The notes under the pieces: generated by a model | What the model was told of the DNA's origin: nothing | Databases searched by the model: none | The model's input: the letters and a program-made list of their open reading frames with translations, nothing else | Shown: piece after piece, positions 18,978 through 25,064 of the stretch | How positions within the stretch are numbered: position 1 is the first letter of the stretch | Layout of the letters: every line of letters begins with the position of its first letter | Position numbers and translations under genes: made by a program | Origin: Octopus vulgaris | Taxonomy: Eukaryota | DNA: 64,000 bases | Assembly (NCBI GenBank): GCA_951406725.2 | Contig: OX597816.1 | Span: 16,182,001-16,246,000 of the forward strand | Direction of reading: 5' to 3'

Positions 18978-19789
18978 ATCAGGCTGGTCAGATTTGACTC
19001 ATGTGGCCCAGCCACAAAATTTAGACCACTAATATTGAGAAATTAAGATGACGATCACTTTTCCATTTTGTTGCAGAGTTCTGCAATAAAACAAAAAACA
19101 AAAAAAAAGGCACTTCAATTGGCTCTGGAACTATGCTGGTCTTGTATTCAAAATTACATCCTGTAAATCTTTTTTGTTCCCTTTTCAAACAGCATGAAAC
19201 AATTTCAAAGAGAGGAATGACCTGCAGCGGCCAATAACTGCATGAGCACTTCCTCATCATCATCATCATCGTTTAGCGTCCGTTTTCCATGCTAGCATGG
19301 GTTGGACGGGTCAACTGGGGTCTGTGAAGCTGGAAGGCTTCGTCAGGCCCAGTCAGATCTGGCAGTGTTTCTACGGCTGGATGCCCTTCCTAACGCCAAC
19401 CACTCCGCGAGTCTAGTGGGTGTTTTTTTACGTGCCACCTGCACAGGTGCCAGACAGAGCTGGCGAACGGCCACGAACGGATGGTGCTTTTACGTGTCAC
19501 CGGCACGGGGCCAGGCGATGCTGGCAACGGACAAATTTGGACACCTTTATTTACCAGTTAAGTACTCATTGGTTAGAGGTTTTATTCATATATGATAGCA
19601 AGAATGGAATGTATAAGGAGGAATGCTTTGGTAACTAATGTTTTCAAGTTTGAGAGGAGTGTCACAGTGGCTGTGTGGTAATGAGCTTGTTTCTCAACCA
19701 CAAGGTTCTGGGTTCAGTCCTGCTGCATGTGTGGGACCTTAGGCAAGTGTCTTCTACTAATGCTGCAGACCAACCAAATCTTTGTGAGT

Positions 19790-21260
19790 GAATTCAGAAC
19801 CTTCAAGTATTAAGGGGTAGGTACCACAGTTAGGGTGAGCACATTTTCTAACTGATGGGGGTGGATGTGGTGTGTGAAGTTTGGCATTTGTTAAGAGCTT
19901 TTTCAATGGTTTATGTTGCCTTTTGCATTTAAGGATTTTATGTGTATTGATAATATTATTCATTTTCGGGTCCATGGACAGTAAGGGGAGGTTTTGTATG
20001 ATTGTGGTGTGTGCTTCGATGTTTTTGGGGTTGTGGGTGGAAATGTATGGAAGTATTTTGAGGTTGGGTATGTTACTGTGTTGGGTGGTTTTCAGTGTGT
20101 TATTGTCGACTTCCTTGGCACGTTTTATTCCATGGTCTGAGTGTGGAGGGATATTGGTGTTGTAATAGTGTTTTTTGAGGTCTTGAAGGCATATATCCCG
20201 AGTGGTTGGGTCTGAGACAATGGTGCAAATCCTTTTAGCTAAGTTGAAGGGGATACTTATCTTCATGTGTTTTGGGTGGCATGAACTGAAGAGGAGGTAT
20301 TGTTGTGAATCTGTAGGTTTGTGGTAGATGTCGGTTGTGATTTAGTTGTTAGGTGTTTTTATAATTAGGAGATCAAGAAAAGGGAGATGATGTTTGTTGA
20401 ATTCCATAATGAATTGAATGTTGGGATGTATGTTGTTAAGTGCGGTTTTGAAAACCAGAAGTTTTTCATAAGATTCTTTCCATATGACGAAACAATCATC
20501 TAAGTATCTTTTCCAGTTTTCCATTAAGTAAATGTGGAAAAGGTGTCCAAATTTCTGGCGTGATATCTCATAAAGTGATAGTTCGAAGAAGCCCATTATG
20601 AGGTTTGCAAGGACTGGTGCAGCTTTGGTACCCATTGCGATACCACATTTTTGACGGAAGTGTATGTTTTCAAAGAGGAAGTAATTGTTTGTCAGAATGA
20701 ACTTGAGTGATTCTGTAATGAAGGTCTTACTAATGTGGTTAGGAAATGCTTCTGGGTGTTTCTCCAGCCAGAAATCAATTGCCTCAATACCATATTCATA
20801 TAGTAGCAGAAGAGTAGCAGTCCATAAAGAACAGATAAATCTCCCACAATACCATCAAATTCCACTCAGTCGCCACATAGACTCTTGCACTAGAAATAAA
20901 AATCCCAAATTTCGTATATTCCCTTTCTATCAATGTAAAGACAGAATCTCTACACAAGAAAGAATCAACAAGGAGAATCTTTTAATTAAAAAATTCCAAA
21001 CGCTTCTTAATAAGCAAACTCCACAGTGACCGTATTCCTTTTTCTAGCATCCTGTTTGACAAAAAATCCAGCATTCCAATTACAGAGCATAAAATCCACG
21101 GAATTGTCTCCCCTTATTCACAGGAACTGGATAACTTCTACCCCATTTCCTGTTTTGACACAAACATCCAACCTTCTCAAACAAAACACTACACTAAAAC
21201 ACATGTACCCTATCTTTCAAAGAAGTTTTCCCATGGAATAATATTGAACTTAAAAGCATA
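19790..21260 (-). mobile_element. Penelope-like retroelement (RT + GIY-YIG) with inverted segment
   Basis: Minus strand: ILTNNYFLFE...GIAMGTKAAPVLANL...WKRYLDDCF...LPFLDLLI...SIPFNLAKRICTIVSD...LPYISTHNP. Plus strand 20800-21030 encodes the endonuclease C-terminus VHKEQI...FRIFPFYQ...KENLLIKKFQTLLN. Confidence 0.88.
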
Positions 21261-21687: not shown

Positions 21688-22549
21688 GTATAGGTGTGTG
21701 CATGGCTGTGTGATGGTTAAAGAGCTTGATTTGCAACTATGTGGTGTCTGGCTTTCCCAACCACATCGCACCTTGGGCAAGTGTCTTGTGTTATATTCCT
21801 GAGTCTCATGAATGAATTTGGTAGACAGAAACTGTATGGAAGCCTGTAATGTACATATGTGTATGTGTGTGTATGTATGTGTGTGTATAAATACATATAT
21901 CTCATATAACTTATAAAATTGTAATGGTAGGGTGAGCTATTTTGGGGTAAAATGAGAAGGGTGCAAGAGTGTTAGTGTGAAGGAAATGAGGTGAGATAGG
22001 GAGAGTGACTGATATTAGAAAAGGGGAGATTGGAGTTGTGTAAGAGACAAATATGGAGTGGTAATGGTAACATTAATATAGCTGTCATTTAAGGATGCAC
22101 ACATGCGTGTTTTCAATCAGTTTACAAAGCCAAGTTGTAGCCAGCAGATGAAAGCTAATAGAAATATTGTTTGTGTGTGTATGTGTATGCATGTATATAT
22201 TTCACACGCTGTCACCTTTAAGAAAAGAATGATTTATATGAAAAGTTTACTCCATTCACGCGTACGCATACATTTATAACATTAGACACACGGATGGAAA
22301 TCACAAATGGAAATAACTTAATCCTATAACAACTATATTAATCAGAGATATTAAATTTCTAAATATCTCAGAGAGATATATGCGATGGTGGAGCGATAGA
22401 GTGGTTGTATACTGTCAACTTGACGTGACAGTCCCGTAAAGGAATTACGCCACCGGTATGTAGCCCTAGGAAGCATCGACGCTTCCTGTTGGCCTTGACA
22501 CATTTCCTGTGTCCTTATATATTTACAAAGGAGAGACAAACACCCCTAA

Positions 22550-22629
22550 CAGCTAGGCCTGCATCTAGAGACATGCATGTTTCTGGATCTTGCCCATCAT
22601 CAGTCTAGAGTAGCAAGGCCTGCTAGCTG
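22550..22629 (-). ncRNA. Type I hammerhead ribozyme with extended helix I
   Basis: Minus strand reads cagctagcaggccttgctac-tctaga-CTGATGA-tgggcaagatcca-GAAA-catgcatg-TC-tctaga-tgcaggcctagctg. Core is intact, all three helices can form, and GUC cleavage is predicted between 22570 and 22569. Confidence 0.85.
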
Positions 22630-22817
22630 AAGATTAACTCTTTATTATAGGCACAATGGCCTGAATTAAGAGGGGATATTACAATACAAGACATGGGCTA
22701 CATATAATAAAAAAAAATTAAAAAGTATGGTATGACAATGAATTATTTGTAATGAATTAAATGGAATGGCTTTCGAGCCCCCCAAAGCTCGCAGTTTCAT
22801 TTATAATTACAATTGTG

Positions 22818-24078
22818 TTATTCAGGGTGTTCATCTGTTATGTAATAGAGTACTTCCTCCTGTTCTATAATACCTGGCAAACTGTCGTAACGAATGTATT
22901 GCATTATACATACACCTGTATACACATTTCTCAGTTTCATCACTGTTTCTCTTTCCACAATCGCTGCCTTCACCTGGTCATCAAACATCTTCGGGTTCAA
23001 CTTCACTCTGGTTAGACTTTTTATATTTGCCAACTTCTTCTCAATTTCCTTGTCCTTCTTGTACAACATTATCGCTTTAAGATTTCTTCCTTTTGGTCTA
23101 TTTCCTTCCTTACATATTCTCAGCCAATCTTCCACTTTTCTTTCCCATTCTTTCTCCTCCTGCCACCTTGAAACTTCGCTCGCTTTCGTTTCTGTATCTT
23201 CCTCTTCGTGCGTTCGATCCTCTATCTCATCGGTAGTCTTCTTTTTAGTTTTTTTCTTTTTTTTTGTACTTTAGGTGGTGATTCAACCCACGTTCTCTTT
23301 CTATCCTCTTTTTCTGTTGTTCTTCCCTTTTCTTCCTCCTTCACCAACTCATCACCACTTTCTACATTATCTGTGGTCACGATTTCCTCTTCCACATATG
23401 CCTTATGTAACTCCTCTGTCAAAGCCTCCAGTGTTATCATTTCCTCTTGTTCTTCTCTTAGCGGACACATATCTTTCATGTGGCCTCTAATTTTACATTT
23501 GTAACACACTGGGGGGTCTCCCCTCCACCACGACTCTGAGACGTGTCTCATCGGGGAACACCAACTCCTCCGGGATGTTATACATGTCTGGCATGGTTAT
23601 GTGGACCAAAGCCTGTACCGCATAACCCCACCACTTTAGACTTTTCTATCTTCAATATCTCGACATTCTCGGCACAGTTAAATATTGTTGCCACTACAAT
23701 TCTCTCCATGTTCAGTTCTGGTGAAATTTTACTGATTCTTATTCTCACCGCTTGTTTTCCACAATAGCTAGGTAGTAATACCCATTTTTCATTTTTCAAT
23801 ATTTTCGTGGCGTTCTTCTTTGCTTCAGCTTCGTTCTCAAAATGAACTACCACCGTCGTGTACTTTCTACCTCTATTGTAGAAGGTAGTTTTTTCTTCAA
23901 TCTCTTGCAAACACCTCTCGATTTCCTCCACCTCTGCCACTTCTATTCTCTTCGAAGCCACGCTCCACGTTCTGTATGTCACACTACGTTTCTCTGCTTC
24001 TTTCGCTTCTTCTTCTGGTGGTGTGACCCTCAGGCAATCACCTTCCTTCTTGAAACTGTTGAATTTGGTTAAAGTGAT
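22818..24078 (-). mobile_element. ORF1/gag-like protein with CCHC zinc knuckle (L1/Tx1-type ORF1-like), ~420 codons, 3 frameshifts, no RT
   Basis: Joining minus-strand frames gives ...RSVTYRTWS...YTTVVVHFENEAEAKK...AVRIRISKISPEL...IPEELVFPDETRLRVVVEGRPPVCYKCKIRGHMKDMCP, then an acidic/basic low-complexity region, ending YYITDEHPE*. The Cx2Cx4Hx4C knuckle preceded by V.EGRPP resembles non-LTR ORF1 proteins. Confidence 0.75.
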
Positions 24079-25064
24079 TCAAACTGCAAACTCAATGCAA
24101 AATGGTCACATTTAATTCAAAGCATTAAAAATGTTATGAAAACAATTGGTATGTGTTCACAAAGTCCAAATGATTAATACGAAAAAACCCTCCAGGCTAC
24201 ATCCTGAAAATTCATTTCTTTGCCGAATTTCTACAATGTTTACGGCGATTCAAGTTGAGTTTTATATATATAGATTTTGTATATTTATAGATAAATATAT
24301 AAATATACGATAAATAAGACCCCAAGGTACGATATGTAGATGCATATAATGGTGTTTTCCCAAATTATTTATATTATATATATATATTAACTACATACAG
24401 ATATATGTATAAATACATACATACGTAATAATAATAATAATATTGTAAACACTATTATTCATAGCTTTATCTACTTCAAGTTTCACTATTAAAAAGGATT
24501 TATATGTGTATCGTGTGTGTGTGTGTACGTGCATGTATGTATGTGTGTGCATCTTGTGTGTATCGTGTGTGTGTGTATCTTGTGTGTATCATTGTTCTAG
24601 TTGGTTTTGTAATCAATAATTTTAATAATTAGCATTTTCTTAATTGATATCTTAAAGGTATTCAGGAAATACTAGGGAAATTGTATTTTGTTTTATTCAG
24701 TCAAAGAAATTCGCCCTTTCTATCTACATGTGCATATTTTCACATGTGCATGCACTTGTGTGTGTGTGTGTGTGTGTATGCTGCCAGTACTGAAAAGAAC
24801 TGTAGCAAACTGTATGTTTTGCCCAAAGAGTTGCACTCAATCACCTCATTTCCTGCTGTTGCAACTCTGCTTGTGGTCAACCATCCCTGGTTGTTGCTAG
24901 TTAAGGGAAGAAATCGGGAAGAACACAGCCAAAATACTGTATATATATGTGTGTGTGTGTGTGTATGTGTGTTTGTAAACATTCTGCGTTTGTCACCCCA
25001 GCTAGATTGCTTGACAACCGATGCTGGTTTGATGTTTGAGTTGTCCCCAATGAATAGAAGGAAA

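Follow-up and report, generated by a model that had tools for sequence, protein, structure and literature searches.

Within the window (the whole 64,000-nucleotide stretch of Octopus vulgaris DNA that was analyzed), a minus-strand ORF remnant lies ahead of a hammerhead ribozyme. Very probably, this arrangement is a dead, 5'-truncated, ORF1-only LINE derivative (here called the cassette) abutting base 1 of a hammerhead repeat that is distinct from it and has no ORF, where it was likely inserted by the enzymes of an autonomous LINE. Judged by comparison of loci, the ORF cassette and the hammerhead repeat are two elements, not one. The component parts are of known kinds. The features discussed below are as follows (window coordinates).

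24064..24288, minus strand: unrelated high-copy repeat, cut at the 5' junction of the cassette, remainder missing (apparently with Helitron-like ends in locus L063)
22818..24063, minus strand: 5'-truncated, frameshifted ORF1 of an ORF1-only cassette (family A), from alignment to intact copies and 32% identity to a LINE ORF1
23465..23506, minus strand: CCHC zinc knuckle, from the sequence and from Pfam zf-CCHC on intact copies
22639..22817, minus strand: cassette 3' UTR, ending in CCTATAATAAAGA and having no poly(A); the tail resembles those of autonomous LINEs
22620..22634, minus strand: downstream copy of the target-site duplication, equal to the first 15 nt (likely from +1) of the retrozyme unit; no upstream copy is present at this locus
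22550..22629, minus strand: type I hammerhead ribozyme (core motifs, covariation), predicted cut between 22570 and 22569
22334..22634, minus strand: ORF-less retrozyme unit (family 1) minus its promoter-bearing linker, from comparison of loci; the full monomer is ~357 nt
19788..21046, no single strand: fragment of a separate Penelope-type insertion, with an RT on the minus strand and an inverted piece; it does not belong to the element

The ORF remnant and its cassette family

The remnant runs on the minus strand from 24063 down to a stop at 22820-22818. Compared to natural intact copies, the assembled sequence featured three frameshifting indels: an 8-nt gap near 23638, one surplus base in a C run near 23511-23516, and surplus bases in an A run near 23255-23265. 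There were zero stops in the reading path before its end. The alignment confirmed the reading path, CCHC knuckle, three frameshifts (two of them in homopolymers), and lack of internal stops described in the initial annotation, which did not record that the window copy is without the first 34 codons and the 5' UTR of intact copies. The AATAAA (22646-22641) was also found where it had been reported. The sequence of a reported stem-loop (22791-22768) is present as well, but that 3' region folded no better than shuffles (z +0.33). No ORF2 is located 3' of the ORF, in agreement with the earlier statement that neither RT nor endonuclease follows; the Penelope-type RT fragment ~1.3 kb downstream, which had gone unmentioned, is a separate insertion. 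On the alignments, the window copy is a dead fragment of an ORF1-only cassette.

A word-indexed protein search with the ORF returned zero matches; a profile search, by contrast, located relatives. The named homologs were octopod proteins (seven named among the ten looked up), and a protein from Octopus bimaculoides aligned across the cassette-type C-terminus, which suggests that the cassette lineage is common to octopods. Of 914 first-look candidates for the family, 150 were scored, and part of the 150 were fetched. Intact copies encode 450-463 aa, and zf-CCHC was found on them by Pfam at E-values of 0.0009-0.02, slightly below the cut-off. Over 219 aa, the protein shares 32% identity (E 1e-35) with the ORF1 of an autonomous LINE (L123). 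These LINEs are 5.3 kb long, and their ORF2 contains APE, RT, and zf-RVT domains. Like members of the Tx1 clade, the autonomous partner has an ORF1, an ORF2 with APE, RT, and a C-terminal zinc domain, and a target preference. The solved endonucleases closest to its APE are those of L1, and there was no named Tx1 reference among the 120 matches listed; the label L1/Tx1-type is used for it.

The cassette tail was also compared to LINE tails. Against two of them, only 0/500 and 2/500 shuffles scored as high, and against a third, 132/500 did. An APE start within 700 nt was observed in 0 of 141 alignments of the cassette C-terminus (the loci are redundant). The cassette is flanked by short duplications, not LTRs, and forms tandem arrays with a period of ~1.8 kb. 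The homology of both ORF1 and tail to the autonomous LINEs shows the cassette, at the sequence level, to be an ORF1-only (HAL1-like) derivative of an L1/Tx1-type LINE. HAL1 is a non-autonomous LINE derivative encoding ORF1p only, as described in PMC5753468. The cassette resembles it in having a single ORF homologous to LINE ORF1, no ORF2, a 3' tail shared with the autonomous LINE, and target-site duplications. It differs in that it descends from an octopod L1/Tx1-type LINE, not from mammalian L1 as HAL1 proper does, and in its lack of poly(A), its position specificity, and an additional ~100 aa at the C-terminus. Thus defined, the cassette works like HAL1 but is of other origin and is not a member.

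The dN/dS for residues 1-240 was 0.14-0.35 (27 natural open frames; the pairs are not independent). The protein is under purifying selection and, because of these values, is taken to be useful to the element. A low-confidence predicted model (pLDDT 46) contained two RRM-like domains ahead of the knuckle (Z about 7). The fold matches listed for this model were RRM or ferredoxin-like, with no capsid among them. Of the earlier description "ORF1/gag-like", the ORF1 half is thus borne out by the LINE homology and the RRM-like folds, but the gag half is not: as modeled, the protein resembles a LINE ORF1 (a pair of RRM-like folds and the CCHC) rather than a retroviral gag.

The C-terminal ~100-aa region (L003:1051-1500, residues 350-450) is conserved (dN/dS about 0.26 at high dS). 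It could not be aligned to the partner ORF1 and carries no family or fold assignment; the model is poor there (pLDDT about 25). Further divergent ORF1-like units, 37-55% alike to family A, were noticed in the 3' flanks of L008 and L127 and at L041:4771-5385, and one such unit type starts exactly at the 3' end motif of the retrozyme.

The hammerhead and its ORF-less repeat

The core of the hammerhead (22629-22550) is complete: stem I (TCTAGA), CTGATGA, stem II, GAAA, stem III with the palindromic CATGCATG, and GTC, with cleavage predicted after 22570. In a covariation analysis of 15 hand-picked copies from families 1 and 2, 90% of the cells paired, versus 26-40% in slid controls, and compensatory changes were found in 12 of 23 pairs, C3-G8/U3-A8 included. 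The hammerhead was not called by Rfam, neither at the gathering threshold nor at E<=10, and was not recovered by MFE folding of the region (z -1.2). A strict descriptor found 18 distinct motifs only and missed family 3; the hammerheads of that family are therefore known from visible core motifs, outside the covariation test. Judged by its core and covariation, the window hammerhead is a real type I hammerhead, as had been claimed.

Variants of the core were also observed. A U3-A8 pair replaces C3-G8 in some hammerhead families (family 2, and family 3 with TTGATAA/TTGACAA), and U4C occurs in family 1b. These variants were noted at L111-L113, L123, L124, L147, L177, L178, and L180 and in family 3 (L133, L135, L137).

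The ORF-less monomer is ~357 nt long (the period in L043). The unit is non-coding and multicopy, occurs in tandem forms, is of a size within the range for non-LTR retrozymes (~170-400 nt), and carries a type I hammerhead with a conserved core. By these sequence features it fits the metazoan non-LTR retrozymes, which have type I hammerheads in units of ~300-390 nt (PMC7229834). ORF-less copies exhibited 5' truncation, partial tandems, and inverted 5' pieces, which are marks of Penelope-type copying (PMC8557442). Metazoan retrozymes have been proposed to be non-autonomous Penelope derivatives (10.64898/2026.07.22.740005). An autonomous Penelope partner was not found in the one PLE family compared: the window fragment at 19788-21046, tried as a partner or part of the element, was rejected, as it has no similarity to any retrozyme unit. 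The young Penelope-type family to which this fragment belongs (also L231-L234) has a 753-aa frame with RT and GIY-YIG, and its many near-identical intact copies are accompanied by inverted 3' pieces.

Like metazoan retrozymes and newt satellite 2, the octopod units have a type I hammerhead; newt satellite 2 is also reported to have an snRNA-type promoter (PMC2220036, citing Coats 1994), and the present results would extend that finding to molluscs. The octopod units differ from metazoan retrozymes in that they are mostly dispersed monomers or partial tandems and are landing sites for the LINE clan. In retrozyme families 1 and 2, the snRNA-type motif is one arm of a short inverted repeat (L068 linker; L123:1920-1960) and is followed by an AT-rich/TATA-like run near -30 (L068, L123). 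The second arm is absent from U1/U2 genes.

In the 2.8-Gb genome searched, there were 2935 first-look candidates for the 3' 441 nt versus 204 for the ORF/UTR query, figures that are not copy numbers. In DNA-like runs, the summed contig depth (again not a copy number) was far greater over the 3' part of the repeat than over the ORF. No run recorded as RNA was among those listed as carrying the sequence. Contigs from two runs guessed to be RNA cover both the ORF and hammerhead parts; none is identical to the locus, and they show no ends or strand.

Junctions between the cassette and the retrozyme

The cassette 3' UTR was present at 0 of the 29 loci nearest to the window hammerhead. Most of these had a linker remnant joined directly to the hammerhead arm, and one (L065) had an autonomous-type LINE tail at the same base. 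When the linker-hammerhead junction of another unit was used as the query, the best 40 matches all spanned it uninterrupted. The reverse comparison started from ORF-ascertained loci (L131-L210, 20 of which were hand-picked, blind to flanks, out of a list of 150) and yielded 66 distinct cassette 3' junctions, the window copy being one of them. Forty-three joined a retrozyme (28 of the family-1 type, 8 family 2, and 7 family 3) within a few bases of its first base; the remainder were 1 retrozyme fragment, 1 U2, 8 nested cases (another cassette or LINE), and 13 other DNA. Autonomous LINEs begin at the same bases in retrozyme families 1, 2, and 3 and at position 1 of U2.

Target-site duplications of about 12-20 nt matched at both cassette ends, differed from copy to copy, and were also found at non-repeat sites; one truncated cassette (L017) retained both linker and duplication. 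A tree of 52 cassette 3' parts (rows <450 nt and nested copies were left out) required 17 target changes, the minimum being 4.

The initial annotation had envisaged a protein-coding retrozyme, i.e. ORF and hammerhead as a single unit. As a one-unit claim this fails: the ORF is missing from the nearest hammerhead loci and has copy-specific duplications of its own. The possibility it had named against itself, targeted insertion, is what the co-occurrence comparison revealed, with the ORF standing before three hammerhead families, U2, and other sites. Its broader suggestion of a non-autonomous retroelement with its own RNA-binding protein survives insofar as the cassette is ORF1-only, lacks RT, and adjoins a real hammerhead; the ORF and the hammerhead, however, do not make up that element together.

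A distinct family might nonetheless be imagined in which the ORF and hammerhead are cut, circularized, and copied as one unit by a Penelope-type RT. Several structures favor it. Full composites resemble partial tandems with inverted 5' pieces, and L140 holds an inverted copy of the 3' part of the repeat that starts exactly at the truncation point of the cassette. By eye, 9 of 11 truncated cassettes before a retrozyme (window copy included) have no upstream duplication, which counts against simple insertion because simple insertion should leave one. There are also sister composites (L042/L150; cassette 98%, hammerhead part 97%), and three loci (L169, L180, L185) share one odd 5' junction. Target labels were clustered on the tree (17 changes versus 21 on average after shuffling; 1 of 200 shuffles gave so low a number), as would also be expected from the copying of composites. 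Yet copies without an ORF have the same partial tandems and inversions, and the cassettes most closely related to that of the window (94.5% and 91%) carry hammerheads that are just 84% and 65% alike to its own, while ORF-less units reach 91-96%. Together with the cassette's own duplications, its U2 and other non-hammerhead targets, and the 17 target changes, these observations make an independent coding family improbable. Recopying of ORF-plus-hammerhead composites by the machinery of the repeat, as a side process, is a different matter: the truncated composites lacking the upstream target half, the inverted arm of L140, and the close sisters indicate that it probably happens at times. For the window copy itself, the evidence points neither way.

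Terminon/Athena elements combine many ORFs in the same orientation, each closed by a hammerhead repeat, with an EN-less RT, and are telomeric. They were rejected as a model; the multi-ORF arrays seen here are nested insertions at one site, and the partner RT carries an APE.

The window copy has no upstream target-site duplication, and no contig joins the two flanks as an empty site would. A deletion occurred at its 5' end in any case, because the remainder of the abutting unrelated repeat is also missing. The continuation of that repeat (window 24064-24075) in L063:2530-2550 is TTAGCAGGCC. At 1-2 nt from the break, this shares 9 nt with the hammerhead target (TAGCAGGCC), a match that is possibly the trace of a second-strand cut or of a homology-guided deletion. 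The genome is dense in repeats, and the 5' junction of the window copy does meet an unrelated one, but a mere chance encounter of an ORF1 fragment with a hammerhead repeat is hardly credible and was rejected, given that 43 of 66 cassette ends join a retrozyme no more than a few bases from its start.

Insertion sites and promoter motifs

The insertion site keeps a fixed distance from a promoter motif, with the motif at -53 to -60 if it is of the snRNA type and at -25 to -32 if it is a TATA. Of 10 U1 genes, 8 had an ATCAGT(G/C)-type motif at -56 to -59, as did all three intact U2 genes. Retrozyme targets had it ahead of the insertion site, within the range given, in 15 of the 16 cases that could be assessed; these count as three independent families, not 16, and L147, which was mis-anchored, is not among them. 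The background for the stricter motif pattern was 0.7%; family 2 matches the looser pattern only. Among the 12 target types that were neither retrozyme nor U2, 8 had a TATA start at the distance given (background 3.1%), the distance window having been chosen after data inspection and the duplication having been called by script. A ninth target (L207) fits by eye only, three (L127, L149, L166) have no TATA, and one of three LTR-like copies read -35. The tail match was absent in L239, L240, and L246.

The snRNA-type motif would correspond to the proximal sequence element and the insertion site to +1, the latter on the basis of the motifs and U2. Because the site sits a fixed distance behind a U1/U2-type motif or a TATA, the LINE clan likely inserts at RNA polymerase II start sites. 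Every assessed copy was in the sense orientation of the host unit, with a positional spread of about 7-8 nt. Remnants of the donor duplication were found within the 5' ends of new insertions (L049, L193, and U2-inserted LINEs), as expected if the RNA starts at the +1 of the host. Broken copies also occupy these sites, which argues that survival of transcribed copies alone cannot explain the pattern.

Individual targets were varied. In the U2 array, the autonomous LINE sits singly or in tandem at position 1 of U2 genes, and U2 is left full-length and promoterless downstream of it (L114-L116, L120). One cassette subfamily (L235, L249, L250, L236, L241, L245) occurs in an LTR-like repeat that has a pair of CCAAT boxes and a TATA, apparently a CCAAT/TATA promoter; its insertions lie 26-35 nt past the TATA and form ~1.85-kb tandem arrays. 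In a multicopy target (L237, L238, L251, L252, L210), the TATA sits at -28 to -30, ahead of a stretch resembling a 5' UTR and then an ATG.

In the proposed mechanism, the cassette RNA would be made from the host promoter and would start with the old duplication. It would be bound by its own ORF1, ORF2 would be provided in trans by the autonomous LINE, and insertion would proceed by target-primed reverse transcription at another start site, with ORF1 as the most likely adaptor tethering insertion to the initiation machinery. The high number of retrozyme units, each with an snRNA-type promoter motif, would make them the main target. With the hammerhead arm restored by the duplication, a transcript that reads through would be cleaved about 65 nt past the end of the cassette. 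Inspection by eye revealed no accumulation of cassette copies terminating at the hammerhead cut site.

A more general proposal is offered tentatively, as one that could well prove wrong. The LINE clan would find polymerase II start sites by position, via an ORF1 that binds some factor shared by TATA and snRNA-type promoters, for which TBP is the obvious choice. Being promoterless, it would take that of the host, and ORF1-only elements would keep their protein as a targeting adaptor. Retrozymes would supply a promoter in front and a self-cutting 3' end and would occasionally carry an ORF off as a protein-coding circular retroelement.

Two other accounts of target choice were considered. The target could be chosen by the sequence preference of the endonuclease, in the manner of Keno, the link to start sites then arising from the similar 5' ends (ATC-N5-CYGG-like, by eye) of U1, U2, and the retrozyme. 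U2, family 1, and family 3 sites do start with ATC, often with CnGG some 8-11 nt on, and target choice in Tx1 elements is reportedly set mainly by the endonuclease (PMC4494074). This account is nevertheless rather unlikely: family 2 and the TATA-type sites lack this shared sequence but still lie at a set distance from the promoter motif, and sister cassettes switch between unlike targets. Alternatively, insertion could passively follow open or melted DNA at start sites with no transcription-factor tether. A promoter-linked position would also be expected from such a process, and three targets have no motif; however, the narrow positional spread and the all-sense orientation seem tighter than open chromatin would give, and we give passive insertion a similarly modest chance. 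The data are compatible with tethering, with endonuclease preference, and with passive use of open DNA.

For polymerase III genes, targeting of start sites by position has precedents in yeast Ty3 and Dictyostelium TRE5-A. These elements resemble the octopus clan in inserting position-specifically near start sites. The octopus sites differ in having U1/U2-type and TATA motifs, a probable +1, and sense orientation. TRE5-A, the ORF1 of which binds TBP, Brf1, and Bdp1 (PMC5911963), is the nearest mechanistic precedent. Target-specific Tx1 elements (Keno in U2, Tx1L in Tx1D, and Tx1-Mar plus SINEU in Mariner-N4) are likewise APE-type LINEs with passengers; they are reported to target U2 or other transposons, with tandem re-insertion around the duplication and non-autonomous passengers (PMC4494074). 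In contrast, the octopus targets share a distance to promoter motifs, not one sequence. The Keno/Utopia site is described as flanked by U2 fragments (PMC4640811); compared by that description, Keno differs from the octopus LINE, downstream of which a full-length U2 (model positions 1-192) stays. As proposed, the cassette would resemble Drosophila HeT-A in its use of the promoter of a neighbor and of RT in trans. HeT-A is ORF1-only and, unlike the cassette, is telomeric, with no ribozyme neighbor and no promoter targeting. Its transcription from the upstream promoter of the neighbor, with RT probably supplied in trans, is described in PMC1636488.

In the literature searched (Repbase and most subscription papers lie outside it), there was no LINE inserting at the polymerase II +1 of both snRNA-type and TATA promoters; nor, with Repbase again outside, was there a LINE targeting retrozymes. 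An octopus repeat library with 13 recently active L1-Tx1 families has been reported (PMC13282606), and its supplements may already list the present ones. If the proposal is true, the clan would allow the role of ORF1 as a targeting adaptor to be put to the test and would explain why ORF1-only elements keep their protein under selection, and its insertions would map germline-active promoters in a non-model animal. In any event, an ORF beside a hammerhead need not denote a coding ribozyme element.

The U1/U2-type motif was found at the corresponding place upstream of 0 of 10 U6 genes, several of which resemble pseudogenes. U6 genes with a TATA at -30 (L212, L214, L217, L218) have an octamer-like ATGCAAAT/ATGCTAAT near -75 and no U1/U2 motif, which suggests that polymerase III snRNA genes here use a different proximal element.
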